From Eledone cirrhosa (lineage: Eukaryota), in assembly GCA_964016885.1 (NCBI GenBank), contig OZ024743.1, forward strand, positions 364,188,001 to 364,252,000: a stretch of DNA of 64,000 nucleotides, given 5' to 3'. Position 1 is the first letter of the stretch, and each line of letters starts with the position of its first letter. Made by a program: the position numbers and the translations under genes. This document shows, in pieces, positions 29,935 to 59,724 of this stretch. The notes below the pieces were generated by a model, which saw nothing but the letters and a program-made list of their open reading frames with translations, made no database searches and was not told the DNA's origin.

Positions 29935-32900
29935 ATATATAGAAAACAAAAACAAAGGATGTAACAAAAAAAAATAAAAACAAAGGAAAAATTCCCCAAT
30001 AGGGGGAAGACTTCCGATGGTCACTCGTTGAAAAAGCCCACAAAAAGCCACGGTCACCCTGACCGCTAGAGCAAGCGCCCTATCCCAGTTTTCCTCCTAC
30101 GCTACTACAGGCACACACTCAGAGAAGACCTATTCACACGGGCCATTCTTGCCTCTCTCATCCATCTTTCAACAAACTGGCTGGAAGGCAGCACATCCCT
30201 CTCCACCGTGATTTTCTTTTTCAAGTAAAACCTGAAAAAGTTAATGAGGGCGTCACCGAAGAGGAACGTGCCTGTCTTCAGCCCTTTCAGACGCATCCAC
30301 CATACAACCTCTTTCACCATGGCCACCAGGCAGATAAATATCACCTGCCCATTCTGGTTAAAAGAGGATGGCGGGGCAATCTTCATGATGGACAGGCCCG
30401 GCTAACGGCACTTCCATGCCTGTAAAGTTTAACTCGAATTGGCAGTGCTCCCCGGTAACACTGCCAGGCCAGGGACTTCTGGAAGCTATACATTGACCCT
30501 GGACCAAAAGTCTTCCCGAAGAGCTAGTTGGCTTTCGCCGAAACCCAGAGTTTCCCCAAGGACGTCGTCGCTCTTGCCCTCCATTAACCCTCTATAGAAC
30601 GTCAGGGTGGAGTTTCCATCGATCGCATCGCCCAACTGGTCGAGGGCTGTGAGCGCCTGAAGACATTCCAGTCTCCAAGCGCTTCCTCTCGGTCTTCGCT
30701 TGACTGCAGCTCCGTCAAGGAGACGAGCTGGGGGAAACGTGTCTAGCAAACGGCGACGCACCTGTTCACCGTCGAGAAAGAGGTGGACATGCCGTAGCCT
30801 CAGTGCATGTCTGCGCATCATCAACAACGGCAATCCCAGCGCTCCACGTAGCGGGTGTTGACAGCAGATAGACACCTGACCATCGGAGGTCCCTTCTACA
30901 AAAAGCGAAAGAGCAAACGCTCCAGCGCAGTCAGGCGAGGCTTAGGACAAGGCACGATGGTCAGGTGGTAATAGATGAGAGAGGTCACCCCGCTCGTCAC
31001 CTTGTCCCAGGTGTTGTCCGTCTGGAGGTCCTGACCGAACCAGACCCCTATCAATGTAACCAGTCCGTCCGTCCAGCGCCCGAAGACGCTGTTGGATGGC
31101 ATGGATCTGCCTCTCCGGGTTCCGAGCCGCAGACCCACCAACTTTTCCTGGTTGATCATTGTTCCTATCTCCGCCTCGTAATCTCTTAGAGTAGTGCCGA
31201 TCGCCTCGATGTGTTTGGCGTTCGACACTACTACGTTGACGTCGTCGGCTTATGCTGACACGGTTCTCCCGCATCCCAGTTCGGACGGGACGCCCCTCAA
31301 CGTCTCCAGTTCGTGCATTAAAGACTCGAGAGTCAATACGTACAACAGGGACGAGAGGGGATATTTTCGGCGGATCGAGCGCATGATGTTGAACGGTTCT
31401 GAAAGGTGACCGTTCACTCTCACCACAGAGCGGATGTTATTGTGCATGACAGTATCCTACCTCCAAAGACGGGCCCAAATCTGGACGCTCTCGGGATCGC
31501 CGCCAGATAACGAGAGTCGACCCTATCAAAAGCTGAATTAATCAAGGCGTCACCCGTGCCATGTTCGTTAGCTATCCTCTCCACGATGTATCGCATGAGG
31601 TGGAGGTCATGGATGGATCTGTTTGGAATGGCGTATGTCTGCGCCTCTCTCACCAGACCACCGACGACAAACGCCAACCTCTTTACTAGCACCTTGTGTT
31701 TAGCAGAGTTATCTATGTTGTTCTCCTTGTTCGGGTCCTTTCTCAGCAGCGCCGCCGCTCCTCGGCTCACAGAGCTGGAAATTCTCCCGTTCTGCCGCCA
31801 GTTGCAGTAGACGTCCGTCAAGAGGTCGTCGAGCAAGTCTGGCATGTGTACGTAAAGCTCGTAGGGCAGACCATCCAAACCAGCAGATTTACCCCTTGTG
31901 CAGTCAGTCATTGCCTCCCGTACTTCAGCGGTTGTTATTGGCTTTTCGCAACACTCCGCCTCAGTGGCCGAGAGCCACGGCAACCGTCGAGGTAGGCACA
32001 AAAGTCCATCATGCGATCCGACCGACTCCTGCCTCCGAACAGCTGAGCGAAGTTCCACTGAAAAGCCGCACACATTTGCTCGGGTTCGAGTAATATGCGC
32101 CCGTCGTGGTCCTCCAAAGACCGGATCATGGCTTTGTTGCCACGATACGCCTCCGCCTCTCGGGCCTATCGAACGGCTTTCGTCCCCTCGTGTCTGACAA
32201 TGCAGCCTTCGTGCTTTGCGTTGAAGAATTGGTTGAGGGCAAATCTAGTCACAAGCACGTCGGTCACAATGCCTTTACTAAGCACCTCGTCTAATTTTCT
32301 AACTAGTTCTCCCATCTGCTCTATTTTTCTCTATTACTAACACCTTACTAAACCTAATGGACTCTATTCTAATCGCCCTTTTTCAGGACGAACCACCATT
32401 TGTTGTTGACGATTGTCTCCTTCAATGCCCGCTTAATTAGTTTGCTAATCCGGTCTCTGTGGGCTTTGCGCGCTGTTAACGATGCGTTTAGCTTCCAGTA
32501 GGCGTCTATGAAGCCTATCTAAGTCGACCACACAGATCACGACTTTGTGGTTCGTGTAGTCGACTATTTTGAATTGTGGACAACCTATTCTAGAACTATA
32601 TATTTACTTACAAAATACTCTATCAAGATACGATCTGGATGACCCGATGCGGTTTGTCCATGTCCACATTGGCACATTCGGGAAATCCAGTCGGTACCTG
32701 TCAGACAGTTGGAAACGTCTGAGCAGGTTTGTGAGGCTTTTACACTCTCCTCTCCTATCCGCTAATTTCATATAATCCCAGCCTGCATCCAAGATCCCGT
32801 TCCAATCACCCACTAACATTAAAGAGCGGGACGTTCCTAGGAGGGTCTCCAGTCACCTGAAGAAATCAGGCCGTCCTGCCCGCCGGGGCTTAAACAGCCA

Positions 32901-33060
32901 CTAGCCTAAAAGCATAACTTTCGCTGCTGGTCACGTCCAGCACCACCAACTTACTTTCTGGGTCTAGGAAGATGGTCAGTATCACGAGATCCAGGCCTCT
33001 TCGAAACAACACAGCAACTCCACCTCCCAATCCCGGCCGGCTTGAAGATGCGTACACATC
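29935..33060 (-). mobile_element. degenerate Tx1/L1-clade element (nearly whole ORF2 plus 3' UTR)
   Basis: Collinear with ~40240-43660; APE and RT motifs with frameshifts. Confidence 0.92.
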
Positions 33061-33370
33061 TTGGTTGTGGTGTTCGACATTATGGCGGTGGAGATGGCGG
33101 CTTCAACACCTGTAGACATTGGCAAATGCGGGAAGTCTACGTCTGCACGTGGCAAACTTTGGCGATTTCTATTGTTGCTGATGCTGTTAGTGAAAACGTT
33201 ATCGGTTTTGGCAATTATAGCAAGGTTCACAATGGTGGTAGTGGTAGTAGTGTGTATGTTAGAGCCGCTGTCGCGTGACAGCTGGCTTAATTTGGGGAGG
33301 CGTATACCGTCCATGTTTTTTTTTTCAAAACAATTGCTTGGTTGATAAAATAAAGTTTTAATAATAAGTT

Positions 33371-33372
<2 letters not shown>

Positions 33373-33423
<51 letters not shown>
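33373..33423 (+). repeat. (AAT)n tract, 5' flank of Dong insertion
   Basis: Direct reading. Confidence 0.97.
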
Positions 33424-33424
<1 letters not shown>

Positions 33425-34858
33425 GACGATCTTAAGCTCTTCGGGAAAAGTGAGAAGGAGTTGGATGTGCTTGTTGACACTGTCCGTATTTTCAGCAGTG
33501 ATATATGTATGCAGTTTGGTATTGGTAAATGTAGAGTCATTGTGATGAAGAGGGGTAGGTTGAGCAGAAGTAACGGGATCCAGATACCAACAGGTGAGAT
33601 GATAAAGGAAATTGACTCTGGGGAAGGATACAAGTATTTGGGCGTTCTGGAGGCTGATGGCATAAAGAACAAAAAAATGAAGGAATTGTTAAGAACTGAA
33701 TACATTCGAAGAGTAAGGAGCGTATTGAAGTCACATCTGAACAGCAGAAATGCCATAAGCGCAGTAAATTCCCGAGCTGTGTCTATTATTAGGTACAGTG
33801 CGGGAATTCTGAGATGGAATGTTGCTGAACAAAAAGAAATGGATAGGAAGACTAGGAAGCTATTGACTATCTACAACATGTTCCACAAGAGGAGTGATGT
33901 CGATAGACTCTACCTAAGGAGATCTGAGGGTGGAAGAGGTCTTATCAGCATAGAGGACTGTGTTCAGATGGAGAAAAACAACCTATACAAATACATGACC
34001 TATAGTAAGGAGCCAATGCTCAGAACTGTACTGAAGGAGGGGACAGTAGGCCAGGGGATGTCCAAGGAGGAAATAACATCAAGGAGGAAGAGCAGCCTTA
34101 AGGGAAAATCCCTTCATAGTACCTTCTTTGAGAAAACTGAATTTAGAGATCCACAGACATGGAACTGGTTGAGAAGAGGAGACCTCAAAAAGGCTACAGA
34201 AGGAATGCTAATGGCTGCGCAGGAGCAGGCCCTCAAAACGAAGTGGTTGAAGCACCATATCTACAAGGAGGAGGCTAGCCCACTGTGCAGGATCTGTGGA
34301 GAGAGAGAGGAGACTGTGGCTCACATTGTGTCCGAGTGTAAACACCTAGCCCAGACCCACTATAAGGGCTGGAGACACGATGTGATGGGCAGGGTGATCC
34401 ACTGGCACCTGTGCAAAGTAAACAATCTACCACATTCTGAGAAATGGTATGAGCATAGGCCAGAGGCGGTGATGGAGAACAGTCAGGTGAAGGTGCTGTG
34501 GGATTTTAGGATACAGACGGACAAAAAACTGGAACACAATAGACCTGACCTGGTGGTTGTGGACAAAGAAAAAAGATCGTGCCTGATTGTGGATGTGGCC
34601 TGCCCGTTCGACACGAGAGTGCAAGAGAAGGAGAGGGAGAAAATTAACCGATACCAGGACCTAAAGTGGGAGGTGAAAAGGATCTGGAACTGCCATGAAG
34701 TCAAAGTGATCCCGATTGTCATAGGCGCACTGGGGACTATCTCCAAAGGTTTCCAGGGATGGTTAAAGAAAATCGGCCCCTTCACGCTTTTTGGAACGCT
34801 TCAAAAGGCATGCTTGCTTGGAACAGCAAGAACCCTCCGATACGTCCTGAATATCTGA
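33422..34858 (+). CDS. uninterrupted C-terminal 478 aa of Dong-like RT/RLE protein (truncated, not functional alone)
   Basis: MDDLKL, YKYLG, RSEGGRGL, CRIC...HIVSEC, RHD, RPDLVV...VDVACP...K..Y. Confidence 0.8.
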
Positions 34859-34927
34859 GGCTGCAGGTAGTGGCTTGATATTCAACGGACTTTCCAGTTA
34901 ACCAACATCAATGACTGAGATTCAAGG
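33422..34927 (+). mobile_element. 5'-truncated R4/Dong-like element (family B), flanked by (AAT)n on both sides
   Basis: Close sibling of 48858-50364; (AAT)n tail at 34928-35013. Confidence 0.93.
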
Positions 34928-34939
34928 AATAACAATAAC

Positions 34940-35013
<74 letters not shown>

Positions 35014-36011
35014 GGAATACCTAGGGAAGAAGACGCACGAGGTGGTAGAAGGTCATGAAATCGCTCCCGTAAGTTTTTGATTTTTAACATATTTAAATCA
35101 ATTGTGAAATAACAATTCTTAGTACAAATGTTGCATAAACCAACGAATGAAGTCCCATAAAATTTCGGATCCACATTATATTGTTATATCGCTCAAATAT
35201 TCAATTTTGTATTATATATTTTGTATTCAAAAAAAGAAAATGGTTATAAATGGAAGAAAACACCCTGTCTACACTATATAGAACAGCCAAATAACAGCAA
35301 TTTCACCAACACCAGAAACTTGATACACCACCTATCCCATCACACTAAATATAACAGCCAGATAACGGCAATTTCACCACCACCAACATCAATCCCGGCA
35401 TGATAATAATAATTACTATTATTATTGTCTCAAATTTTAACAAAATGTTTAATTCCAATTTTACGGGAATATGTCAACACAATATATATTAAACATACGA
35501 AGACAAACTCATAGATACTACATATCACAAAACCCAGTAACCACAACGCCACCGCCGCCACCACCCCATCCATCATCTTGCTACCACTATCCCATCGCCG
35601 CCGCCACCACTCCTTCATTGCTACCACCACTATTCCCCTGTTAACTTGAGAGAGAAAGGGGAAGGTGGCGGTATCACTAGACAAGGGAGAGGCTAGCAAA
35701 AGATATAAATAGATTGACTTAGTGACCTGGCCACCGGCCAAACGTCAACATCAACAACTATGGGACTGCTGACTCACCCCTTCCTCACCAACAATATAAA
35801 AAGCCCCGGCACCACCACCGACATAGCCAACAACAATAACAGGCAACTACAGCAAAAAGTATATTATATTATTGTAATGCACTGGGTGATTGCTGGCCTT
35901 GTGCCTGGAGTGGAGACAATTATTAATAATTTCATTCTTAAGCCACGCAATGCTCACATTAAGGAACCACTCATGATAATAACAATTTAAAAAAAACAAC
36001 AAAAAGAAAAC

Positions 36012-39000
36012 CCCGTGACCAAGAAATACCGGGATGGCGGCCGGCGGGGAATAGCCGTGTCTCTAGGGGAGAACGACCCCTCTAGTCTTGGTTGACACTC
36101 GTTCTAGAAGTGGTAACACGAAATGATTACCCCTTGGCGGATAAGGATAAAACGCGACAAAATAAAGTAAAGGTCTAATGATAAAATCTCATACCGGATC
36201 GGCCGTCACCCGGGTAAAAAAGGGCCGCGTCCCTCAGAGAGGAACCAGACTGGGGTCGAAAAATCAGCTAATGGTTCAAACCTTCCCATCACTTCGGAGC
36301 TGGAGACCTCCCATAACCGGAATACTCCTACTGTTGGCCCTCCATGCTCACCACCAAGAAATCCAAAGAAAAAGAGAGAAAAATGGTCAAGGGAAGATAA
36401 TAAAGAAGTCCTTGAGGCTTTCTACACTGCCATGTACTACCCATCAAATACATCGAATACAGAACAGACATATATCAACTGGAAAAAGAAACATCCCGAA
36501 AACAGAGGCTATACTGACAGTAACAAACTAGCCAATATACGAAGAAATATTGTAAGAAAAAGGTTACTAACTGATATAGAAATTGATCAGATCAAGCTAT
36601 TAGCACAAAGTCAGCGAAGGGAAAATGAAACATGTGTCAGTGAAAACGAGGTAAACTGTAACACTTCGAACCCCAGGGTTGGGGCGGAATCACTGGCAAC
36701 AGAACAAATTAAAGAAAGGATCGAAAAAGTGGAGGGAGTGCATGCTCAGGATGAAACTCCAAATGAAAATAATGAGATCGTAAATGATAAAGAAATGAAT
36801 GAGAATGAACTTGCCAACTTGAAGGATGAAATTATGATCGAATGGATGAAAATGAAAGAATCTGACATGGGGCAACGAGACACCCTCCCTAAGATCCAGA
36901 ACTTCAAACAGAACCAAAAGATAATACACAAGACTAACATAATTCTCAAAAACATTATCATCACAAACAAACTAAACATTACTGATTTAAATCATCTCTA
37001 TTATGCATCGGCTAAAGTCACCACTCACTTATGTGGAGTGAAGATGCAAAAACAAAGGAATTCCCACAAGAAATCTACTTGGCAAGAGAACATCAATCGC
37101 CAAATAAACCTTCTCCGATCTGACATAGAAATTTTAACAAACTATAAAGTAGGTGAACATGTTAAACAAACTAAACTTAGAAAATTGAAAAAAAAGTACA
37201 GTATAAAATCAACATGTGACATAGACATGCTGATAGAAATAATCAAGCAAAAAGTGTCGGCCAAAGCTGCTCGTATAAGGCGCTTTGAAAAACGATCTAG
37301 ATTCTATAAGGACAATAATATGTTCAAAAACAACCAAAGAAACTTCTACAGAAAAATTGGTAAGTCAACAATAACTGCTAAATCAATACCACCCAAGGAG
37401 GAAGTGCAAGAATTCTGGGAAAAGATCTGGGCCGAAGAAAAAGTTCATAACATACATGCCCCATGGATAGACAGACAAATGAAAGATACAGCTCACCTTG
37501 AGGAACAAATATGGGAAAATATAACAGTTGAACAGTTGCGCTTGGCTCTAAGAAAAACCAGCAAATGGAAATCCCCAGGAAAAGACAAAATACAAAACTT
37601 TTGGATAAATGCCTTCACAGAGTCTCATGAGCTGTTAGCCCAACTTTACAATGAAATAGTTAAGGAGCCAGAAAAAATACCATCATGGCTAGTTAACGGC
37701 ATTACATTCCTGCTTCCGAAGAATGATGAGACAAACAATCCCAAAAATTACAGACCGATAACTTGCTTGACCACAATGTATAAAATTTTAACATCAGTCC
37801 TAACTGAATACACATATGACCACCTGATAACAAATGACCTATTTCCCATTGAGCAGAAAGGGTGTAAACGAGGCTCATATGGCTGTAAGGATCAGCTTCT
37901 GGTTAACAAAATGATACTGGAAGATTGTCATAATAGACACAAAAATCTATCGATTGCTTGGATAGATTATAAAAAAGCATTCGATAGTTTGCCACACAGT
38001 TGGATTGAAAAATGTTTAGAGATTTTCAAAATATCCCCCGTTGTCAGGAGGTTTTTGTCATTCAGTATGAAGACATGGAAAACGACACTCCTTTTGAATA
38101 GTGAAACAAAATCACTGGAAGCTGGAGAAGTTAATATTAATTGTGGAATTTTTCAGGGTGACTCTTTATCACCGCTTTTATTCTGCATTGCACTTATACC
38201 ATTAAGTAAAATGCTCAATGAAACGAAACATGGATATAAAGTCTATGACAAAACCATTAATCACCTGTTCTACATGGATGACCTGAAACTATTTGCAAAA
38301 AATGATGAACAATTGCAAGGGCTATTATCCACTGTGGAGCAGTTCAGTGATGACATTAAAATGGAGTTTGGACTAGATAAATGCGCCAAAGCAACGTTCA
38401 CCAGAGGAAAGCTGCTGAAGAGTTCAGACATTAATCTTGATCGGGGGAACGTGATAAGAGAACTTGATCAAGAAAAAACTTACAAATATCTAGGTGTTTG
38501 TGAAGGAGACGGAATCAAGCACTCGACAATGAGGGAAAGGATAAGGAAGGAATGTTACCGCAGAGTAAGAGCAATCTTAAGAACGGAATTGAATGCAAGG
38601 AATAGGATCGATGCCATAAACACGCTTGCCATACCAGTAGTAACCTACAGTTACAATATCATCAACTGGTCAAGCACAGAGATCCGTAGGCTCGATACAA
38701 AAATTCGAAAATTCTTAACCATGCACAGAATGCATCACCCTAAGGCAGATATAGATAGAATATATCTCCCTAGGAAAGAAGGAGGACGTGGGTTAATCCA
38801 GTTAGACATTGCGTTGAAAACTGCAACAATTGGATTATCTACATATCTAAGGGAATCACATGATTGGATGATCAAACTCGTTTTGAAACACGAAAGCATC
38901 AAAAGATCATATTCCATTACAAAAGATGCACAAAGATACAGTAATGGACTACAAATTTCAGAAGTCCCATTTACTGCTGAAATGGAAAACACAGAAAAAG

Positions 39001-39966
39001 CAAAGCAGGTAAAAGTAACTGCAAAGAAAGAACTGCTACAGAAACTGGCTAAGAAATGGCAAGAAAAGCCTCTGTATGGAAAATACCCAGAACGAGCTAA
39101 CAATCCTGATGTTGACAAAACTTTAACCCATCAGTGGTTGGCATCCTCTGGACTGAAATCGGAGACTGAAGGACTGATTATATCAGCACAAGATCAGTGT
39201 CTGCCAACAAAAAATTACCAAGCCAACATAATAAAAAATGGATGCAGCCCATTATGCCGTGTATGCAAAAAACAACCAGAGACCATTGACCATATAATTT
39301 CAATGTGCAGTCCTATAGCTCCAACCGAATACCTAAACAGGCATGACAGAGCTGCACAATACATACATTGGATAATGTGTAAGCATTTTGACTTGCCCCA
39401 TCAAAAGAATTGGTGGGAGCATCAACCACCTCCCATACTTGAAAAAGATCACATCTCAATCTTGTGGAACTTTAGCATCCAAACAGACCAAAAAATAGAT
39501 GCAAATAGACCTGATATAATATTGAAGGACTTTCAAAAGAGGGTATGCCTGCTAATTGATATGTCTGTTCCAATAGACAAGAATGTATCTATAAAAACAT
39601 TTGAAAAATTGAGCAAGTATAAGGACCTGGAGATAGAAATTGGAAAAATGTGGAAATTGAGAACTAAAACAATACCAGTGGTTGTAGGCGCTCTGGGAAT
39701 GATACCTAAGGGGTCTAATGATTACTTATCGCAGATCCCAGGAAACCCGCGTATAGGAGAAATACAAAAGATAGTACTAATGGGAACTGCCCATATACTA
39801 AGGAAGATTCTGTCAATATAAGTACATCATAAATCTAAACACTAAAGATGCATGTGTGAGTATGTATGTTCTTCCTTGAACATGGCGGACCTTGTTGTCT
39901 CTTGAGGTCACTGGTTGTGACTTGGTGATAACTCGTATGAACATAAAGCAAGATAAATTCAACTGT
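36012..39966 (+). mobile_element. apparently full-length R4/Dong-like non-LTR retrotransposon (family A)
   Basis: GC-rich structured 5' UTR, single long ORF, ~145-bp 3' UTR, (AAT)n tail; 5' boundary approximate. Confidence 0.93.
36432..39821 (+). CDS. reverse transcriptase / CCHC / restriction-like endonuclease polyprotein (1129 aa; frame is open from 36171)
   Basis: KSPGKD, NYRPITCL, WIDYKKAFDSLPHSW, GIFQGDSLSPLLF, YMDD, CRVC..HIISMC, RHD, RPDII..LIDMSVP..KLSKY. Confidence 0.95.
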   Translation: MYYPSNTSNTEQTYINWKKKHPENRGYTDSNKLANIRRNIVRKRLLTDIEIDQIKLLAQSQRRENETCVSENEVNCNTSNPRVGAESLATEQIKERIEKVEGVHAQDETPNENNEIVNDKEMNENELANLKDEIMIEWMKMKESDMGQRDTLPKIQNFKQNQKIIHKTNIILKNIIITNKLNITDLNHLYYASAKVTTHLCGVKMQKQRNSHKKSTWQENINRQINLLRSDIEILTNYKVGEHVKQTKLRKLKKKYSIKSTCDIDMLIEIIKQKVSAKAARIRRFEKRSRFYKDNNMFKNNQRNFYRKIGKSTITAKSIPPKEEVQEFWEKIWAEEKVHNIHAPWIDRQMKDTAHLEEQIWENITVEQLRLALRKTSKWKSPGKDKIQNFWINAFTESHELLAQLYNEIVKEPEKIPSWLVNGITFLLPKNDETNNPKNYRPITCLTTMYKILTSVLTEYTYDHLITNDLFPIEQKGCKRGSYGCKDQLLVNKMILEDCHNRHKNLSIAWIDYKKAFDSLPHSWIEKCLEIFKISPVVRRFLSFSMKTWKTTLLLNSETKSLEAGEVNINCGIFQGDSLSPLLFCIALIPLSKMLNETKHGYKVYDKTINHLFYMDDLKLFAKNDEQLQGLLSTVEQFSDDIKMEFGLDKCAKATFTRGKLLKSSDINLDRGNVIRELDQEKTYKYLGVCEGDGIKHSTMRERIRKECYRRVRAILRTELNARNRIDAINTLAIPVVTYSYNIINWSSTEIRRLDTKIRKFLTMHRMHHPKADIDRIYLPRKEGGRGLIQLDIALKTATIGLSTYLRESHDWMIKLVLKHESIKRSYSITKDAQRYSNGLQISEVPFTAEMENTEKAKQVKVTAKKELLQKLAKKWQEKPLYGKYPERANNPDVDKTLTHQWLASSGLKSETEGLIISAQDQCLPTKNYQANIIKNGCSPLCRVCKKQPETIDHIISMCSPIAPTEYLNRHDRAAQYIHWIMCKHFDLPHQKNWWEHQPPPILEKDHISILWNFSIQTDQKIDANRPDIILKDFQKRVCLLIDMSVPIDKNVSIKTFEKLSKYKDLEIEIGKMWKLRTKTIPVVVGALGMIPKGSNDYLSQIPGNPRIGEIQKIVLMGTAHILRKILSI

Positions 39967-39980
39967 AATAATAATAATAA

Positions 39981-40130
39981 TATAAGTACATCACAAGTCT
40001 AAACACTAAAGATGCATGTGTGAGTATGTATGTTCTTTCTTGAACATGGCGGACCTTGTTGTCTCTTGAGGTCACTGGTTGTGACTTGGTGATAACTCGT
40101 ATGAACATAAAGCAAGATAAATGCAACTGT
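39981..40130 (+). mobile_element. second copy of the family-A 3' UTR with its own (AAT)n tail
   Basis: Near-identical to 39817-39966 with a few substitutions. Confidence 0.9.
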
Positions 40131-40398
40131 AATAATAATAATAATTATTATTTCTTTATTAACCACAAGGGTTTACATGAAGTAGACATTAAGGACAGTG
40201 CAGGACAATACAGGACGGTACAAATGGGCATTTCTGCGTGTAAAGAACAAAAACAGAGGATGTAACAAAAACTAACAATGAAAATTTCCCCAATAGGGGG
40301 GAGACTTCGGAGGGACATTTGTGGAGAAAGCCCAGTAAAAGGCCCCAGTGACCCTGACCACCAAGGCAAGTGCCCTCTCCCAGTTTTCCACCTTTAAT

Positions 40399-43300
40399 TT
40401 ACAGATACGTACTCAGAGTAGGCCCATTCACTCGGGCCATTCTTGCTTCTCTCACCCATCTTTCAACAAAATGCTGGGAAGAGAGCACTTCCCTCTCTAC
40501 CCTGATTTTCCTTTTCAAATGAAATTTGAAAAAGTTAATCAGGGCATCACCGAAGAGGTAAGTGCTCGTCTTCAGCCCTTTCAAACGTGTCCACCATACT
40601 ATCTCTTTCGCCATGGCCACCAGACAGATAAAAATTGCCTGCCCTTCCCGGCTAAATGAAGAGGGCGGGGCAATCCTCACGATGGACTCAGATGATAGCC
40701 GGATCCGTCCTACACGCGACAGCAGGTGTTCGACATAAACCCACAAGTCAGCAATTTTCGGACACTGGACGAGTGCGTGCAGGACGGTTTCGTCGCCCTG
40801 CGCGCATCTCGGACATGCCCGGCTGACGGCACCTCCATGCCTGTAGAGTTTATCCCGAACTGGCAAGGCTCCTCGGTAGCACTGCCAGGCCAGAGATTTC
40901 TGGAAGTTGTCCATAGGTCCCGGCCCGAAAGTTCTTCCGAAGAGATTGGCTAGTTGATTTTCGTCGACGCCTAGAGTTTCCCCCAAGTACGTCGTCGCTC
41001 TTCCCCTCCACTAATCCTCTATAGAACGCCGAGGTGGAGTTTCCACCGATCACATTGCCCGATTGGTCGAGGGCCGTGAGCGCCTGAAGACATTCCAGTC
41101 TCCAGGCGCTCCCTCTCGGTCTTCGCTTGACCCAGGACTGCAGCTCCGTCAAGGAAACGAGCTGGGGAAATACGTGTCTAGCAAACGGTGACCACACCTG
41201 ATCACCGTCGAGGAAGAGGTGGAGATGTAGCCTGAGTGCGTGTCTGCGCATCATCAGCCACGGCATGCCCAGCCCTCCACGTAGCGGGTGTTGACAGCAG
41301 ATGGACCGCCTGACCATCGGAGCGCGTCCCTTCCACAAAAAGCGAAAGAGCAAACGCTCCAGCGCAGTCAGGCGGGGCTTAGGACAAGGTGCGACGGTCA
41401 GCCGGTAGCAGATGACAGACGCGATGTACGCGTTAGCCACCTCCGCTCGACCTTTCAGGGATAGCTTCCTCTCCGCCCATTTCTGGGTGAGAGAAGCCAC
41501 CCTGCTCGTCACCTCGTCCTAGTTTTTGTCCGTCTGGAGGTCCGGACAGAAACAGACCCCTAGCAATTTAACCGGTCCGTCCGTCCAGCGTCCGACGACG
41601 CTGTTGGACGGCATGGATCTGCCTCTCCAGGTGCCGAGCTGCAGGCCCACTGACTTTTCCTGGTTGATCATTGCTCCTGTCACCGCTTCGTATTCTCTTA
41701 GTGTAGTGCCGATCGCCTCGATGTGTTTGGCGTTCGACACCACTACGGTGACATCGTCCGCATATGCTGACACGGATTTTCCGCATCCTAGTTCGCGCGG
41801 GACGCCCCTCAACGTCTCCAGTTTGTGCAGTAATGGCTCGAGAGTCAATACGTACAAGAGGGACGAGAGGGGACATCCTTGGCGGACCGAGCGCATGATG
41901 TTGAACGGTTCCGAAAGGTGACCGTTCACTCTCACCACAGAGCAGATGTCGCTGTGCATGGCAGCGATCCAGCCTCTGAAGACGGGCCCAAAGCCAGCCG
42001 CCCTCAGGACTGCCGCTAGGTAACGATGGTCGACCCTATCGAAAGATTTCGACTGATCTAAATTGATCAAGGACCTACCCGTGCCAGGTTCCCTAGCTAC
42101 CCTCTCTACGATGTATCGCATGAGGTGGAGGTTGTCGTGGATGGATCTGTCGGGAATGGCGCATGTCTGCGCCTCTCCCACCAGACCACCAACGACAAGC
42201 GCCAACCTCTTTGCTAGCACCTTGGCCAAAATCTTGAACTCTGTGTTTAGCAGAGTTATGGGCCGGAAATTATCTATGTTATCCTCCTTGTTCGGATCCT
42301 TTCTCAGCAGTGCCACCGCTCCTCGGCTCACAGAACTGGGAATTCTCCCGTTCTGTTGCCAGTTGCAGTAGACGTCCGCCAAGAGGCCTCCGAACAAGTC
42401 TGGCATCTGTACGTAAAGTTCATAGGGCAGACCATCAAAACCAGGCGATTTACCCCTTGTGCAGCCAGTCATTGCCTCCCTTACTTCAGCGGCTGTTATC
42501 GGCTTTTCGCAACACTCCGCCTCAGTGGCCGAGAGCCGCGGCAGTCCGTCGAAGTAGACACTAAAGTCCATCCCTCGACCCGGCCCACCGCTGCCCCCGA
42601 ACAACTGAGCGAAGTGTCGCTGAAAAGCTTCACACATTTGCCCGGGATCGAGTAGCATGCGCCCGTCGTGGTCCACCAAAGACCGGATCGTGGCTTTGTT
42701 GCCACGACGCGCCTCCGCCACTCGGGCCCATTGAACGGCTTTCGTTCCCTCGTGTCTGAGAGCACGGACCCTAGCTCTGACAATGCAGCCTTCGTCCTTT
42801 GCATTGAAGAATTGGTCAAGGACCAATTTCGCCGCAAGCACGTCGGTCGCAATGCCTTTGCTAAGCGCCTCGTCTAATTTTCTAACTAGTTCTCCCTCTG
42901 CTCTATTTTTCTCTATTGCTAAAGCCTTACTAAACCTAATCGATTCTATTCTAATCGCTCTTTTCAGAGCAAACCACCACTTGTTGTTGACGATGGCCCC
43001 CGTCAACGCCCGCTTAACTAGTTCTCTAATCCGGTCTCTGTAGGCCTTGCGCGCTGGTATGGACGCGTTTAGCTTCCAGTAGCCGGGTCCTCGTCTATGA
43101 AGCCTATCTAAGTCAAGCACACAGATCACGAATTTGTGGTCCGTGTAGCTGACTATCTTGAATTGTGGACAGCCTATGCTAGACCTATCTATTTCCCTAC
43201 AAAATACTCTATCTAGATATGATCTGGATGACCCTATGCGATTTGTCCAAGTCCACATTGGCACATTCGGGAAATCCAATCGGTACCTGTCAGACAGTTC

Positions 43301-43815
43301 AAAACGCCTGAGCAGGTTGGTGAGGCTCTTGCACCCTCCACCCCTATCCGCTAATCCCACACAGTCCCAGCGTGCATCTAAGATCCCGTTCCAGTCGCCC
43401 ACTAACACTAAAGAGCGGGACGTTCCAAGAAAGGTCTCCAGACGCCGGAAGAAATCAGGCCACCCTGCTCCTGTCGGGGCATAGACGGCCACTAGCCTGA
43501 AAGCTTGCCCGTCTCCGCTGGTCACGTCCAGCACCACCAACTTACCCTCTGGGTCCAGGAAGATGGCCCGTATGGCGAGATCCAAACCTCTCCGAAAAAG
43601 CACAGCAACTCCTCCCCCGATCCAGGACGGCTGGGAGATGCGTACACATCGTAGCTGCCGAAGATCGGTGCGAAGGCCCGTGCTTCGGAGATTCTGGTCT
43701 CGCTGATGGCCACTACATCTATGTTTAGTGACCTGAGGTCGTTGAGCAGGTGACCCTGCTTCCATGACGACCCCAAGCCACGTGCATATATGCTGCCTAT
43801 TCTGAGTGAGGTCAT
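40399..43815 (-). pseudogene. ORF2, APE endonuclease plus reverse transcriptase (about 2 frameshifts and 1 stop)
   Basis: MTSLRIGSI..ISET, VYAP, LVGDWN, SYLDR, TDHK; FRPITLLN, LDQSKSFDRVDH, VRQGCPLS, YADD; C-terminal CPRC..ETVLHAL..C. Confidence 0.92.
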
Positions 43816-43817
43816 AT

Positions 43818-45881
43818 TTAAAATAGAGTGGAAAAGATGGGAAAGACCACTTACCGTACTTTTCGTAGAGGAGGGATGGTTTTTCCATCCCTTTGCACTT
43901 GATCGTCTGGTGAAGGGACCGTTGAATCGTCCCTTCGGCTGGTCGTCGGCTCTTCTATGAGTATGTCCGAATATACTCTTCGGTTGAGTGTCCCTCCTAG
44001 GTCTCTGAAATCACCAACTGCGTTGGGGAATTTCGTTTTAAGGTTTGTGTATTGTTTCTGTGCTATTTTTAGCAGTCTTATGTTAGTTGGCGTTTTGATT
44101 GGTGCTGGTATTATGTAGTCGTGTTGTGAAATGTCTTTGTGTTCAATTATGCAAGTCATTAGTTTCTTGCTGTGTGTATTTATTGCCGTGCATTTGTTTT
44201 TCTGGGGGTGGGGGTGGTTCTGCTATTTTCTTGTCGCTGTTGCTGGGTGTGTGTGTTTTGTTGTTGTGTTTGCGATGTTGGTGCTTGTGGTGGTGGTGTT
44301 GAAGGTGTTGTTGTTGTTGGCGGTGGGGTTGTCGCCGGTGGTGATGGTGGTGCTAGTGTGGGTGGTGATGGTGTTGGTGATGTTGCTTCTGTGAGTCTCT
44401 TTGCAGTAGCCTTTACCTTTTTTTCATTTCTTTCCTCCCTTTTCAAAGGCGACGATGCGCTGCTTCTGCGTTTGTGCCTTCTTACGACCTTTTGCCATCC
44501 CTCTCCCACCTCACACTCCATGTCTGATTCTGTGAGGTCGGGGAGGGGTACCAGCTCCACTCTTTCACTTGTTATTGTTGGTGATGTTTGCACTGGAGTC
44601 TCTGTTGCAGCTGCATTTGGTATTGCTGTTGTTGTTGTTAATACTTCCACTGCTGCTGCTGTTTTTGATTTCCGTGGCGTGGGTATGGGTGCCACGGACC
44701 TATCGTTCCTGGTTGCCGCTTGTCCTGTTGCTGGTAGCCGTGGAGCCGGTTTCGGAAGGAGGGGGGTTTTCTCCTTTCTCAGGGTCTTCTCGTTGCAGAA
44801 GGCCCTGAGGTGAGTCTTCGATCCACAGCGAAAGCATTTCGGGCGTTTGCCCTCAACACTTATGGGCAGTTGAGTGCTGTTATCGAAGTCTATCACATCC
44901 GAGATAGCTTCGATGCACTCCTGGTTGGTTTGGATTAACATCTCAATGGAGGTGCCGACCCAATCTTCTCTTACTTTTTTCTGTACTTGCAGTACAGTTG
45001 TTTTGTCCTCGATTCCGACGAGGACAGACGCGGCCAGCCAAGAAGGGGCCATCCTGGGGTGTGGCAAAAAGTACGTCTACGGTGGCATATTTTTTGCCTC
45101 GGGTGATGTGCGTTTTCCGCTGCCACACAGACCCCAAGGCTTTTTGTATTTGAGCCTCTGTGGCTCTTTCAACCCTACGGGATTTTGTACTTACTGTACG
45201 GTACGTGACCGTACAGTGCTGTTGGGTTTCGAAAAATTTTTCGGCTGCCTTGCAGATTGCTCGGTGTTCAGTTTTTGTCACCATCTTCTTCGCTTCCTCT
45301 AATTCCTCATTTGTTATGAGGATGGTTTCCAGGTTCTTTGCGATACCAGCAAACGAGATTGGTTTTTCTTTGCTGCTGTTGTTGTTGTTGTTGTTGTTGT
45401 TGTCGTCAGAGCTGCTATTACTTTTGTTGTTGCTGCAGGTACTACGACTACTGCCGCCGCCGCTGTTGCTGTGGTTGTTGTTGTTGTTGTTGTTGCTGCA
45501 GCTGTTGTTGTTGCTGCTAATGCTGTTGTTGTTTATGCTGCTGCTGATGCTGTTGCGGCTGCTACTGTTGTTTTCCTTGTCACTGTTGCTGCTGTTATTA
45601 CGGCTGCTACTGCTATTATTCCTGACGTCAGACGAATGAAATCGGTTTTCGTATTTCCCGTACACCTTTTTCGTCGTTGTCGTCGTCGTCGTGGAGAAAT
45701 CTTGCTCGCTTTGCACGTGATTTTTCTTTTCTGGCGTCGCTTGCGAAAGAGAAGGGAGGGAGAGAGACACATTTAGAGAAGGGAGGGAGAGAGACAATCT
45801 TCTCTCTGCTGTAGTGACGATTGAGGAAGAAGAAGACGGAATGAGTGGGAGTGACCTATGAAAATTCTTTTTCGTAGCCAT
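43818..45881 (-). pseudogene. ORF1, nucleic-acid-binding protein with Asn/Ser-rich N-terminus and CCHC knuckle (frameshifted)
   Basis: CFRCGSKTHLRAFC = C-x2-C-x4-H-x4-C; a TAA lies 2 nt before the ORF2 ATG. Confidence 0.8.
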
Positions 45882-46785
45882 GTTGTTTTTTTGTTTAAAA
45901 TAAATATTGGGCACAAAACCCCAATAAGCGGTTATTTAACCCCGAAGGGCCAAATAACGGGCAGAAAGACCCCTCTCACGAGGAGGAGGGTGTTTTTGTC
46001 TACAAGTTGGTTAAAGTTTTAAACAATTTACAATTGTTATAGCGGTCAAAATTTACAATACCTTACAGAGCCGAGCCTCCGTCAACCATAGCATTCAATA
46101 ATAATAATAATAATAATAATATATTTAAAACAACTGTGATAGAATGATTCTTATTACAAATGAAGTATAAGATTACAGTTTCTACGCTCAGCAAGCCACA
46201 ACACAACGCATCACTTTACGGCATAGGGCCCCAATATTTAATATTTAATTTTGGATCAGAAATGTTATAGTCGAAAAAGAGGAAAATAGCAAAATGGCTA
46301 AGTGGACAGACAGGCAAATAATTTCACCACCAACACCATCACCACTACCACGCCAAAAACTCTAGTCAAGTTACCTCAAATTCTATTTCTACTTCAACTT
46401 CAACACCATCACTACAGTACTACGATCACATCACCACCACCACTGCCTCATTATCGCTACCGCCGCTATTCTCTCCCACTACCTCCTGCTAAGACATGCA
46501 TCGTAGTGTCCCCACTAAAAGAGGAAGGCATCAAAAGATATAAATAGACTGATTTGATGACCCGGTCAAATAATCAGAAAACCAAAATTCAAAATCAAAA
46601 CAGCAAAGCAACAACGAAAAACGTAAAGAAAAGAAAAATGAAAAGAAAAACAAACAGACAGACAGAGAGGGGAAAAGAAAAACTAAGTCAGACATTCAAA
46701 CATTACATTACAATGAAACTTATGTTTATTCTTTTGGTTTTTTTTTTTACCTATTTGTTTGTTTGTTTATTTATGTTCGTCTACA

Positions 46786-49700
46786 CCGTGATAGTGCCAC
46801 ACTAAAATCACCGGGGGTGATGAAATCACCGGTGGTTATGTAAGCATACATTCACCAATCCTCGATAAGAGTGTTTAAATGTCGAACCTAAACAGTTCGA
46901 ATAACGGTGAAGTGGAGACTGGAATGTCATGTGACAGACTCTCACCCAGCAGGTGCTCCCTGGCTCAGCAGCAGGGACCTGGCTGTCAACCAAAAACTGC
47001 TGGTGCCGGAGGAAGAAGAAGGAAAGGGACCAGAACCAACTGGATGAAAGAATTGAATAGAACTGTTATGCAATGTTACTTGAAGAGTAACCCCAAGGAG
47101 AAAGGCTATAGGAAACGGATGCATAACATCTGGAACGAGATTGGTCTATTTAAATTAGATGAACAAAAATTGGCCGGGCAGGCTCGGGTAATAAGAACTA
47201 ATGGGTGGATAAGCGAGCTGGAACTGGAGGAACTGAGCAGAGAGATTAAGTTGGAAATGGAGAGTGGAGTATGCCAGGCAAACGAGCCAGTGGGAAATGA
47301 AGGCGAAGAGGTTGAGAGAACGGAGGAACCATCTGAAGCAGACAATGATCTGAATGCTGAAATAAATAATACCTGGAACAAAGATACGGCCATTGAGGAG
47401 ATGAATGCTGACGGGCTAGGACAAGATTTGGTTGATATCCTAAACTTAGTGGTAGATGAATTGAACAATGATAGTGGGAAACCTATGAACCTAAGATTTG
47501 TAGACAGGAAAAAGTTAAAAGAAACAACAGCTAAGTTAAACAAAGTCATCCCATACCTTGAGGCGAGGAGCCTTCACCAGTGCAACAATATCCTCAAAGC
47601 AACAGCAAATGCGGTGAGGAAATTACTTGGCATAAAAGCGAGAGGAAACACAAACAAGAAAGATCAGAACCTTGGTGGAAGAAACGACTGAATGGTCAAA
47701 TCAGGGAAATGAGAAATGACATTGGAAAGCTTGAGTCCCTACTGAATGGGACACTAAAAAACATAGACACTAAAAATAGACTGGAAATAAAGTACAAAAC
47801 TAGGAGGAAAAAGCTAAATATTATCATAGAGGAACTGAAGCAACGCATTGTAGCAAAGAGTGCAAAAATTAGGCGATACGAGAGCAGAGTCAGTCAGTAT
47901 AGACAGAACCGCATGTTTGACAACAACCAGAAGATGTTTGGACAGCTTGAAGGGAAAGAAAGAGGCAACGACTTAATCCCTGAGGCGGAACAAACTAAGA
48001 CATTCTGGAGAGGAATATGGGAGCAGGATGTTAAACATAATGACCAGGCAGTGTGGATTGAGACAGTACAAAAGGAGATTAGTGAACAGGCACACCAACA
48101 AACTGATTTGAGTATCACAGTTGAAACTCTTAAAGGGCAGGCCAAAAAACTAACCAACTGGAAATCACCAGGCCCAGATGGTGTGCAGGGGTATTGGATT
48201 AAAAATATAACATCCCTCCACCCGAAACTGACAACCATGTTCAATGACTGCTTGATGTCAGGTGAGGTACCAGAGTGGTTGACAAAAGGTACCACAGTTC
48301 TGGTAATGAAAGACCGAATCAAGGGTAATGATGTTACCAACTATAGACCTATCACATGTCTGTCCGTAATGTGGAAACTGTTAACAAGCATTATGTCTGA
48401 GGAAATCTACCATCACCTCCACACAAACAACTTCTTACCGGACGAACAGAAAGGATGCCGAAAGAAGTTCCGTGGTACAAAGGACCAGTTACTTATTGAT
48501 GAGGAATGAGGAATTGCAAGAGGAGACACACTGGTCTTGCCATGGGATGGATAGACTACAAAAAGGCATTTGACATGGTGCCTCATTCTTGGATCACCAA
48601 AAGCCTAGAGATCTTCAAGGTGGCAGCTAACATCAGACAGTTGTTGGGCAAAAGTATGAAGTCCTGGAAAACAGAGTTAACATCAGCTGGAGAATCCTTG
48701 GGAGGCGTGAAGATCAAGAGAGGTATCTTCCAGGGAGATAGTCTGTCCCCTCTTTTGTTTTTCCTTGCCCTGATGCCCCTGACCATTATACTGCGAAAAG
48801 TGAGAGCAGGATACAAGTTGGGAAAGGGAGAGCTTACCATCAATCACCTCCTCTTCATGGACGATCTTAAGCTCTTCGGAAAGAGTGAGAATGAGTTGGA
48901 TGTGCTTGTTGACACTGTCCGTATTTTCAGCAATGATATATGTATGCAATTTGGTATTAGTAAGTGTGGAGTCCTTGTGATGAAGAGGGGTAAATTGGGC
49001 AGAAGCAACGGAATCCAGGTACCAACAGGTGATGATAAAGGAAATTGACACTGAAGAAGGATACAAGTATTTGGGTGTTCTGGAGGCTGATGACATCAAG
49101 AACGAAAAAATGAAGGAATTGATAAGATCTGAATACATTCGGAGAGTAAGGAGCGTATTAAAGTCACATCTGAACAGTAGGAATGCCATAAGTGCAGTAA
49201 ATTCCCGAGCTGTGTCTATTATTAGGTACAGTGCTGGAATTCTGAGATGGAATGTTGCTGAACAAAAAGAAATGGATAGGAAGACTAGGAAGCTATTGAC
49301 TATCTACAACATGTTCCACAAGAGGAGTGATGTCGATAGACTCTACTTAAGGAGATCTGAAGGTGGAAGAGGTCTTATCAGTATAGAAGACTGTGTTCAG
49401 ATGGAGAAAAACAACCTACACAAATACGTGACTGATAGTAAGGAGCCAATGCTCAGAATTGTACTGAAGGAGAGGACAATAGACCAGGGGATGTCCAAGG
49501 AGGAAATAACAACAAGGAGAAAGAGCAGCCTTCATGAAAAATCCCTTCATAGTACCTTCTTTGAGAAAACTGAATTCAGAGATCCACAGACATGGAACTG
49601 GTTGAAAAGAGGAAACCTTAAAAAGGCTACAGAATGAATGCTAATGGCTGCGCAAGAGCAGGCCCTCAAAACGAGTGGTTGAAACACCATATTTACAAGG

Positions 49701-50364
49701 AGGAGGCTAGCCCACTGTGCAGGATCTGTGGAGAGAGAGAGGAGACTGTGGCTCACATTGTATCCGAGTGTAAACACCTAGCCCAGACTCACTATAAGGG
49801 CTGGAGACATGATGTGATGGGCAGGGTGATCCACTGGCACCTATGCAAAGTAAACAATTTACCACATTCTGAGAAGTGGTATGAGCATAAGCCAGAGTCG
49901 GTGATAGAAAACGATCAGGTGAAGGTGCTGTGGGATTTTAGAATACGGACGGACAAGAAACTGGAACACAATAAACCTGACCTGGTGGTTTTGGACAAGG
50001 AAAAAAGATCGTGTCTGATTGTGGATGTGGCCTGCCCATTCGACACGAGAGTGCAAGAGAAGGAGAGGGAGAAAATTAACCGATACCAGGACTTAAAGTG
50101 GGAGGTAAAAAGGATTTGGAACTGCCATGAAGTCAAAGTGGTCCCGATTGTCATAGGCGCACTAGGTACTATCTCAAAGAGTTTCCAGGGATGGTTAAAG
50201 AAAATTGGCCCCGCCCCGCTTTTTGGAACACTTCAAAAGGCATGCTTGCTAGGAACAGCAAGAACCCTCCGATACGTCCTGAATATCTGAGGCTGCAGGT
50301 AGTGGCTTGATATTCATTTTAACAAACTTTCCAGTTAACTAACATCAATGACTGAGACTCAAAG
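46786..50364 (+). mobile_element. full-length R4/Dong-like element (family B), mildly decayed
   Basis: ORF pieces 46879-50290 cover the N-terminal RTNWMKELN motif, RT (FMDD), CCHC and RLE; (AAT)n tail 50365-50397; 5' boundary approximate. Confidence 0.92.
46879..50290 (+). pseudogene. Dong-like RT/RLE ORF split by several frameshifts and a stop
   Basis: Five overlapping ORF-track segments that join into one polyprotein. Confidence 0.9.
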
Positions 50365-50367
50365 AAC

Positions 50368-50397
<30 letters not shown>

Positions 50398-50399
<2 letters not shown>

Positions 50400-52986
50400 T
50401 TTCTTTATTGGCCACAAGGGCTGACATCAAGAAAAACATTACAGACGGCACAGGACGGTACAGGACGGTACAATGTGGGTTTTGTGCGTGTAAATATTTG
50501 TATTATTTATATAAGAAAAGAAAAAAAGGACATAGAAACATATATATATATAAACAATAAAAATGAAAATTGAAACAATGAAAAAATTCCCCAATAGGGG
50601 GGGAAACCTCCGAGGGTTACTCGTGGCGAAAACCACACATCCCTCGGTCTTTTTCTGACCCAGGACTGCAGCTCCGTCAAGGAGACGAGCTGTGGAAAAA
50701 CGTGCCTGGCGAACGGCGACCACACCTGTTCACCGTCAAGGAAGCACCAGAGATGTCGCAGCCTCAGCATGTTTGCGCATCATCAGCTATGGCATGCCCA
50801 GTCCTCCACGCAACGGGTGTTGACAGCAGATGGATCGTCTGACCATGGGAGCGCGTCCCTTCCACAAAAAGCGGAAGAGGAGGCGCTCCATTTCGGTGAG
50901 AGTTGGGCCGGGAGAAGGGACGACGGTGAGGCGGTAGCAGATGACGGATGCGATGTACGCATTCGCCACCTCCGCCCGGCCTTTCAGGGACAGCTTCCTC
51001 TTTGCCCATTTCTGGGTGAGGGAGGCCACCTTGCTCGTCTTCTCGCTCCAGTTTTTCTCCATCTGGAGGTCCGGTCCGAACCAGACCCCGAGCAATTTAA
51101 CCAATCCGTCCGTCCAACGCCCCCACGACGCTATCGGACGGCATGGACATGCCTCGCCAGGTGCCGAGCTGCAAGCCCACCGACTTTTCCTGGTTTATCA
51201 TTGCTCCTGTCACCGCTTCGTATTCCTTGAGAGCTGTGCCGAGCATCTGGACGTGTCTGGTGCTCGATACCACCACGGTGACGTCGTCAGCGTAAGCCGA
51301 CTCGGATTTCCCGCAACCTAGTTCGCGTGGGACGCCGATCATCGCCTCCAGTTTGTGCAGTAACGGCTCGAGAGTCAATGCGTACAAGAGAGACGAGGCG
51401 GGACAACCCTGGCGGACCGAGCGCATGATGCTGAACGGCTACGACAGGTTACCGTTCACCCTCACAACTGGACAGATGTCGCTGTACATCGCCGTGATCA
51501 AACCCCTGAAAACGGGCCCGAAACCGAATGCATCGAGGACCGCCGCCAGGTACCGATGGTCGACCCTATCGAATGCTTTGGATTGATCCAAGTTGATCAG
51601 GGCGCCACCCGTGCCAGGTTCCTTAACCACCCTCTCTATGATGTATCGCATGAGGTGGAGGTTGTCGTGTATGGATCTGTCCGGAATGGCGCATATCTGC
51701 GCCTCTCCCACCACACCCTTGACGTCACTTTGACCCTCACAATTTTCTGCCTGCAGTAGGAGGGCACCAAGACTATCTCCTCACTCTTTAGGATTTCCAA
51801 AGAGTGTGACTTCGCCTCTTGGGGGGTGACGAAAAGTACGTCTACAGTGGCGTACTTTTTGCCTCGGGTGATGTGGGTTTTGCGCGCCCAGACGCACCCC
51901 AAGGCCTTTTGGATTTGAGCCTCCGTGGCTCTCTCCACCCGATGTGACTGTTTGCTTACGGTGCGGTATGTCACCGTGCGCAGCCGCTGGTCTTTGAAGA
52001 AATCGGTTGGAGGTTTCAGGGAAATTCTATTGTCGTTTCTTGTCACCATGTCTCTTGCGATTGCCATCTCCTCCGTGACTAGCACTGTTTCTATATTTCG
52101 GGCTACACCTGCGAAAGAAGTGGCCCCTTTTTCAGCGGCACCATTATTGCTGCCGCTACTGGTCTTGTTGTTGGTGCTGTTGCTGTTGCTACTGCTACAA
52201 ACGGTATTGTTGGTGTTGTTGCTGTTATCACTGTTGTAGTTGGTTGTGTTTTCGGTGCCACCGTTGTTGTTGTTCTCAGTGCAATTTGTATTGTTGCTGT
52301 TGGTGTTGTCGTTGTTTATTTTCTTGTTAGTGGTGTTAATATCGTTGTTGCATTTGTTGTCATTTTTTCTGTTGTCTGTATTTTGGTTGTCGCTGTTGTA
52401 GTTGGTGTGGTAATTTTTTCAAAATTAGTGTTCCCAGTGTTGTCTTTGTTCACGTTGTTTGTGGTGGTGTCTGTTGTAACAATGTTTGCAACCCTCCTCT
52501 CAACTTTTACGCCATTGTCAGACGACAGCAGACATATTGCTGGGGGCGTGGCTCAGCTATGTTTTTTTTTAAACAATTTTTTTTTTATTAAGTGAAATGT
52601 TCGAATATTTGGGCCAAAAAGCCCAAATATTATACTTCCCCCTTCACAGGGCAAAGTCTAAGGGCTTATATCCCTTACACAACAAGAAATATTTAACAAC
52701 AAATAATGTTAACAGGCAAATAAGCGACTTACTGGGAGCGAGCAAAAAGCGTCCGAACAGACCTGTAGTGACTAGCGCCACCTTTGCCCGGGGAACAAAA
52801 CTAATTGGAATTACTTTCCCGTGGCCCGAATATAAGGGAGTGTTCTGGCGCCTCTCTCTCTCTTGCAGCTTGACCTTGCTAAGGTAAACACCAATTCTTC
52901 TTTTGCTCCGCAAGCACAAACAATATGTAACGACAAAACATTACTACGGGCCTGGCCAATGTCTCAGCCAGTCGACCGTACCTTCT
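50398..52986 (-). mobile_element. internally deleted Tx1/L1-clade element with both ends retained
   Basis: 3' UTR 50398-50635, RT middle 50640-51715, ORF1 N-part and 5' UTR 51716-52986; 5' end GAAGGTACGGTCGAC resembles GAATGCTATGGTTGAC at 46096. Confidence 0.88.
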
Positions 52987-59149: not shown

Positions 59150-59462
59150 ATAATTGTTTCTACTTTTGGCACAAAGTGAACCTCGGCGGGATTTGAACTC
59201 AGACTATAAAGCGGCGTAACTCTATGCTGCAAAGCATGGCGTCCGACCTTCTACCGATACTGTCAATCCCCCGACAGATAATTGTTTCTACTTTAGGCAC
59301 CAGGCCAGCAAATTACCCAGTGCATTACTGGTACTTTATTTTATCGACCCCGTAAGGATGAAAGGCAAAGTCAACCTTGGCGGGATTTGAACTCAGCTCG
59401 TAAAGGGACGTAACTATGCTGGAAAGTATGGCGTCTGACTCTCTACTGATACTGCCAATCCC
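59150..59462 (-). mobile_element. two adjacent SINE copies (one internally deleted)
   Basis: Reverse complement of the 10148 family; GACAGATAAT occurs three times at the junctions. Confidence 0.88.
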
Positions 59463-59724
59463 CCGACAGATAATATTAAGACATTACAACAGATACTAGA
59501 CAGCAGCCATTATAGTTGTTATCTTTGAATTCATTGTTAGTACCATAATACAATACAACTATGACAATAACAGGATTGAAGCCAATTATAATAGTGTTTA
59601 TATAGAAACCTTTCCGGGGTGTGAGTAGAAAAGAATGTGGTCAAGATTAATGTACCTGACAAAATCAGTGCAGATAACAGGCTATCAATTGACAGATAAA
59701 AATCATTCGTGTTGAAATCAAATA

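Follow-up and report, generated by a model that had tools for sequence, protein, structure and literature searches.

A family of APE-type LINEs in the genome of Eledone cirrhosa is real and strongly target-specific, and lies in (ATT)n microsatellite tracts as thousands of young copies. The initial annotation of the window, by which we mean the whole 64,000-nucleotide stretch analysed (contig OZ024743.1, positions 364,188,001–364,252,000), had proposed a sequence-specific APE-type family that uses the (ATT)n strand opposite to Dong elements, and the counts of both ends bear this out. When exact patterns were counted over the 3.0-Gb genome, ATTATTATT directly preceded 2,330 of the 2,413 5′ ends of the type present in the window (E-type), always in register (96.6%); (ATT)3 is hence missing at few 5′ flanks and not at most of them. 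The background of ATTATTATT, measured in 40 stretches of 10 kb at even spacing, was 171 per 800,000 strand positions. This corresponds to an enrichment of approximately 4,500-fold, which rules out chance and shows that insertion does not merely follow the microsatellite density. At the opposite end, (ATT)4 directly followed 5,003 of 6,468 LINE 3′ ends (77.4%; exact pattern, genome-wide), and ATTAT followed by A, C or G was detected at only 147 of them. These proportions lie above the threshold of >20% of flanks that Kojima used for target-sequence preference (PMC4494074), as does that of a second subfamily (G-type), for which ATTATTATT preceded 2,124 of 2,279 5′ ends (93.2%; genome-wide). The G-type, seen for example at loci L271, L272, L273, L277, and L288, combines the ORF2 and 3′ UTR of the E-type (~95%) with a 5′ UTR and ORF1 of its own, and its 5′ half looks like a 5′ replacement, as in L1. 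The 400 kb of background (40 stretches of 10 kb) contained 18 tracts of (ATT)4 or longer, 534 bp in total, which is a small sample in which one stretch (L230) happened to contain a previously found locus; only 152 of 1,059 background YATTAT sites were located within tracts. A total of 4,692 5′ ends (E- and G-type) against 6,468 3′ ends indicates that a rough majority of the copies is full length, a ratio that is approximate because the patterns were unequal in length and some 5′ ends may pair with sibling 3′ ends.

Some further arrangements of LINE ends were observed. Head-to-tail runs with a spacing of ~6–7 kb, joined by (ATT)n, were found at G000:C1:55423678-55455624 and C28:82505004-82511144; some of their units are near identical, and tandem duplication may add to repeated insertion. 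At L085, L086, L088, L279, L155, and L158, LINE ends pass from one ATT into (CTT)n, or truncated 5′ ends follow (CTT)n, which possibly points to a further element having (AAG)n as its tail or target. The 3′ flank of L003 contains tiny LINE 3′-end and Dong B 3′-end fragments stacked within one tract in both orientations.

The full-length LINE of the window is a defective copy with an E-type 5′ end, located on the minus strand at 40149–46096, whose ends were set by exact genomic matches (2,413 for the 5′ end and 6,468 for the 3′ end). Its ORF1 (43851–45881, minus strand), which contains one CCHC knuckle and encodes ~700 aa in other copies, has a frameshift near 44943–45076 and lacks ~100 bases near 45055. 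ORF2 (40399–43815, minus strand) encodes an APE endonuclease, a reverse transcriptase (RT), and a zf-RVT motif, identified as the Pfam domains Exo_endo_phos, RVT_1, and zf-RVT; it is broken by frameshifts near 43600 and 41000 and by a stop codon at 41519–41521. An intact ORF2 of 1,139 aa is carried by copy L068. The 3′ UTR (40149–40398, minus strand), of which the last ~30 bases are common to a SINE described below, includes AATAAA at 40155–40160, six bases short of the end.

This element is flanked by (AAT)n on both sides, as had been noted initially. An (AAT)5 tract (40130–40148, with the repeat at 40131–40145) separates its 3′ end from that of an element designated Dong B, and an (AAT)8 tract (46097–46120) separates its 5′ end from the right flank (46121–46820), which is 5′ UTR sequence belonging to another Dong family, Dong A. 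The LINE is thus sandwiched between two Dongs. Dong B (35021–40129, plus strand) is full length with an unbroken 1,216-codon ORF (36171–39821), and its 3′ UTR is duplicated (164 bp); the tandem duplication (97%) comprises the terminal 164 bp including the tract and spans 39815–40145. Dong A (46121–50367, plus strand) is nearly full length and frameshifted, with the first ~70 bases of its 5′ UTR absent. An (AAT)10 tract (50368–50397) connects its 3′ end to a sibling LINE on the minus strand (50398–52800, outer end approximate), which is internally deleted and 84% identical in ORF2. The earlier readings of the left tract as a Dong tail and of the copy at 50398 as ending in the tail of another Dong family were both correct, the left tract following the 3′ UTR of an element with RT and restriction-like nuclease. 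On the other side, a 5′-truncated Dong A (33422–34929, plus strand) lies between (AAT)n tracts at 33372–33422 and 34940–35011, and is preceded by an older sibling LINE (29945–33358, minus strand; 80–85% identical), of which the apparent 5′ end, judged by eye, adjoins the tract 33359–33422. From ~29.9 to 52.8 kb, the window therefore consists of three Dongs on the plus strand and three LINEs on the minus strand chained via (AAT)n tracts. Older and more diverged copies of the LINE lineage (66–77% DNA identity) were also located at 827–1342, 11990–15030, 26546–28096, and 29162–29564.

The name Dong/R4 is used here on the basis of anatomy and target, namely a single ORF (1,216 codons) with RT and restriction-like nuclease and insertion at (TAA)n; the PDB matches of the Dong B ORF were R2 proteins only, extending up to its C-terminal part. 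The first ~120 bases of the ~1 kb 5′ UTR are common to both Dong families, and at the 5′ ends of full-length Dongs, the preceding sequence is often (AAT)n(AAG)m and the first letters are AAG-like (L026, L033, L035, and L306).

The LINE itself exhibits the anatomy of the L1 group, in which ORF1 is followed by an ORF2 that encodes an APE endonuclease, an RT, and a zinc motif at the C-terminus. The best PDB match of its ORF2 was human L1 ORF2 (178 bits, compared with 74 bits for R2), and phmmer gave 333 bits to a medaka protein of the YTX2/TX1 group versus 178 to human L1. In an RT tree of 35 rows, which contains no vertebrate L1, Kibi, Koshi, Keno, or Dewa row, the family formed its own lineage (100/100) and joined vertebrate proteins named YTX2/TX1 at 88/92, below the starred level. 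A single CX2CX4HX4C motif is present in ORF1 of both E- and G-type; such a CCHC knuckle was named for Tx1 (PMC5203782), though it is not exclusive to that clade. Membership of the Tx1 clade is plausible but not firm, and the element is hence called Tx1-like: of the initial assignment to the Tx1/L1 clade, the L1-group part stands by anatomy, while the tree lends weak support to the Tx1 part. The nearest named relative was found in Argonauta hians (73% over the matched part), followed by unnamed proteins at 42–46% identity. Several sibling LINEs exist at 72–85% identity, and a large unnamed sister lineage (proteins P0003–P0073, 42–52% identical) has hundreds of members in ENA assemblies. Named Kibi, Koshi, Keno, and Dewa proteins did not occur among the homologs and cluster members retrieved. 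The relatives on metagenome contigs comprised 80 loci, nearly all ≤35% identical, and an (ATT)4 or (AAT)4 run was present in 4 of the 80, so that the target is not traceable beyond this genome.

The origin of the ATT repeats was evaluated from a junction sample of 184 distinct LINE 3′ ends, deliberately enriched for non-tract sites, for which both junctions were obtained in 107 copies (45 full-length and 62 truncated). Forty of the loci (L161–L200) were hand-picked from the 3′-end list after removal of ends already paired with listed 5′ ends, and were excluded from the Dong-tail proportions given below. ATTAT followed 173 of the 184 ends (a tally including sibling ends), and poly(A) followed none of them. 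Truncated copies outside tracts possess no ATT tail, and 17 of the 33 truncated copies without a 3′ (ATT)4 exhibited a duplication of 9–21 bp (microhomology counted) starting exactly at ATTAT. This indicates that the repeat is target DNA, cut on the element strand just before ATTAT, and that the ATT run is not simply a self-made 3′ tail. On the 5′ side, (ATT)3 was detected in all 45 full-length copies and in 18 of the 62 truncated copies, where the head of the LINE cannot be its source. Among 29 truncated copies that have a tract at the 3′ side, 15 have none at the 5′ side, in some cases probably owing to later deletion or insertion. Full-length copies differed from truncated ones in that none of the 15 with a 3′ flank other than (ATT)4 carried a duplication (p = 0.0003). 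Plainly unique 3′ flanks were seen in only three of these 15 (L271, L272, and L276); the other 12 comprised five imperfect tracts, four with a SINE or LINE fragment, and three running into (CTT)n. Later events, such as decay or insertion, could account for most of the 15 non-duplicated junctions.

A SINE of ~190 bp was found to share the tail and the insertion signature of this LINE. Two tandem copies are located on the plus strand of the window at 10141–10535, and further matches occur at 19177–19363 and 59172–59465. The last ~30–32 bases of the SINE align ungapped to the LINE tail with a score exceeding that of 4,999 of 5,000 shuffles, and the genome contains at least 123,857 of its 3′ ends, as counted with an exact pattern that was chosen to end in ATTAT. 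Among 30 position-ordered copies, 23 exhibited a duplication of 7–19 bp from ATTAT, six had none, and one was located in a long tract ((ATT)4). Of 71 SINE ends examined, 30 showed a clear duplication, and in 29 of these the preceding base was C or T. Residence in tracts thus amounts to 77% for the LINE versus 1/30 for the SINE. As both features of a SINE–LINE partnership, the common 3′ tail and the common insertion signature, are present, the enzyme of the LINE likely spreads this abundant SINE in trans. The ~190-bp SINE was not matched to the octopus families OR1 and OR2 when compared with their mentions in publications; nor was it matched to the octopus family OK.

The mechanism that we favor, with rather better than even confidence and on the basis of the junctions and ORFs, is that of an APE-type LINE inserting in (ATT)n tracts opposite Dong. 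In this mechanism, Y/ATTAT on the AAT strand is the likely nicking site of the LINE endonuclease, and the LINE RNA likely carries target repeats that pair with the tract at both ends. A nick opposite ATTAT would prime reverse transcription. With AATAAA positioned so close to the LINE end, the transcript would read through into the downstream tract, making (AUU)n available for base pairing with the (AAT)n primer at the nick. Where a copy is truncated, or is a SINE, the duplication would arise from a second nick ~10–18 bases further on. For full-length copies, an (AUU)n leader at the upstream end of the RNA would be the template for a terminal (AAT)n on the cDNA, and this (AAT)n would anneal to the tract, leading to one exact junction and to many complete copies. 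The single fixed register in front of two unrelated 5′ UTRs fits such annealing of an (AAT)n-ended cDNA, in a manner resembling R2. No ribozyme or promoter capable of making an (AUU)n leader was found at the LINE 5′ end; Rfam gave seven matches there, all far under the gathering score, and a TCCTCGT stretch in the 5′ UTR showed no fit to the HDV fold when inspected by hand.

The difference between LINE and SINE bears on how the target is chosen. The SINE has the LINE tail and the Y/ATTAT signature yet resides mostly outside tracts, from which we infer that recognition by the nuclease likely concerns a short motif, with the tract fidelity added by pairing of the LINE RNA. In other words, since the SINE follows the short motif while the LINE keeps to tracts, the LINE needs a second filter, for which RNA–target pairing would be the simplest candidate. 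A more specific and tentative extension, to which we give somewhat less than even weight, is that target choice has two layers: the nuclease would read only Y/ATTAT, and (AUU)n at both RNA ends would steer the LINE into microsatellites and make most insertions full length, the same machine driving a SINE that lacks the second layer, with Dong on the other strand. A competing explanation is that the endonuclease, or the complex containing it, prefers long (ATT)n by itself and cuts both strands in register with no RNA–DNA pairing, the SINE being moved by a looser sibling. Target choice in such elements is generally credited to the endonuclease (PMC4494074), siblings that could play this role do exist, and a single register is obtainable from a fixed cut phase. 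However, truncated copies of the same family occur at lone ATTAT sites with duplications of varied length, and full-length and truncated copies have different junction types although they are made by one protein; we therefore consider this explanation rather unlikely, though it is the best of the alternatives.

The relation to Dong was examined by comparing the neighbors of LINE ends with those of background tracts. AAT followed 85 of 86 Dong 3′ ends and ATT followed none, indicating that Dong and the LINE occupy opposite strands of the tracts. Dong A alone has 9,992 exact 3′ ends. Dong tails adjoined 13 of 30 position-ordered LINE 3′ ends, a share no higher than in the background, where they account for 8 of the 18 tracts (Fisher p = 1.0). 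They also adjoined 13 of 38 3′ ends of full-length LINEs (two of 40 had no located 3′ end); the pooled share was 26/68 versus 6/14 (p = 0.77). At 30 full LINE 5′ ends, the neighbors were Dong 5′ sides in 13 cases, 3′ ends of the LINE itself in nine, and SINE tails in four. Counted from the printed flanks, one of these LINEs was present on 9 of 30 Dong A tails, and (AAT)n was present at the 5′ junction of 14 of 16 truncated Dong A copies, which indicates that the “tail” is largely an older tract split by Dong. Private differences were ~1–2% in both Dong and LINE (median 1.1–1.9%), and 20 tail-to-tail pairs revealed no age order, the greater divergence lying with the Dong 11 times and with the LINE nine times. 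Dong tails thus constitute a large share of the LINE sites, but without preference. It had been suggested initially that Dong tails keep creating landing sites for the LINE; the large share is consistent with this, whereas a special dependence on Dong tails is not supported, there being no excess over background, an equal frequency of Dong 5′ sides, and no order of insertion. A stronger version, in which the LINE depends on Dong with fresh (AAT)n tails as its main landing sites, could draw on the share of Dong tails at both sets of LINE 3′ ends and among background tracts and on the LINEs borne by Dong A tails, but is improbable given the same comparisons, the 5′ tracts of truncated Dong A, and the additional sites arising from the tandem arrays of the LINE and from SINE tails. 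As Dong, LINE, and SINE all split the same tracts, each renews sites for the others and there is no single feeder.

Very improbable is the view that the ATT runs belong to the element itself, as a self-made head and tail inserted near randomly, or that tracts are merely where insertions survive selection: the fixed 5′ register does suggest that the RNA probably includes at least part of the upstream ATT, but no tail is present on truncated copies outside repeats, (ATT)3 still occurs at the 5′ junction of some headless copies, a unique duplication surrounds the tracts in none of the full-length copies, and the tracts occupy so few bases of the background.

With this family, (ATT)n joins the targets of sequence-specific APE-type LINEs, and two unrelated nucleases use opposite strands of one microsatellite, which creates arrays of mixed composition over tens of kb. 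With their common tail and cut signature and their sharply different tract fidelity, the LINE and SINE constitute a natural experiment on the parts played by the nuclease and by RNA–target pairing in specificity, and a candidate partner LINE is named for a very abundant SINE. A family of which a rough majority is full length with one exact 5′ junction is also of interest for LINE-based gene insertion.

The (ATT)n target and the SINE partner appear to be new, while microsatellite-targeting Tx1 families, Dong on (TAA)n, and Tx1 families moving a SINE were known already. The literature search found neither an ATT-specific Tx1 family nor a Tx1–Dong pairing; Repbase, the 2004 screen, and supplements lay outside this search and may list one. 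In the sections consulted of octopus repeat surveys, L1-Tx1 and Dong-R4 are described as abundant and recently active, and those sections hold nothing on target sites or a Tx1–Dong pairing (PMC13282606, PMC8967140). Microsatellite-specific Tx1 families have been reported as Kibi on (TC)n and Koshi on (TTC)n of teleosts and as crocodilian families on (TTCC)n/(TTTC)n (PMC4494074, PMC3812793). Like the present LINE, they are microsatellite-inserted members of the L1/Tx1 group with an APE-type endonuclease and two ORFs, but the target here is (ATT)n and not (TC)n or (TTC)n, as the prevalence of ATTAT after the 3′ ends illustrates. The RT of the LINE is ~35–38% identical to vertebrate proteins named Tx1, and the comparison with Kibi and Koshi was made by their descriptions alone. 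Tx1 families that insert into other transposons and mobilize a SINE have also been described, the related cases being Tx1-Mar with SINEU of crocodilians and Xenopus Tx1 in Tx1D (PMC4494074). As in the present genome, a Tx1-group LINE lands beside other transposons and seems to mobilize a SINE with which it shares its target. Unlike these, the present LINE targets a repeat motif rather than a site within another transposon, and its SINE carries the 3′ tail of the LINE, is far more numerous, and lies mostly outside the tracts that the LINE prefers. For R2, upstream 28S sequence on the RNA was proposed to give uniform 5′ junctions (PMC3774820), and 3′ target pairing was described for SART1/R1Bm (PMC7265360). 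The uniform 5′ and exact 3′ junctions attributed there to target sequence on the RNA are similar to those of the LINE, although these elements belong to other clades with other targets, and pairing in the LINE is deduced from its junctions alone. Finally, Dong/R4 elements insert at (TAA)n (PMC7998251, PMC3812793) and share with the LINE the same microsatellite, the same genome, and a similarly young age, but they do so with a restriction-like nuclease, a single ORF, and the opposite strand.
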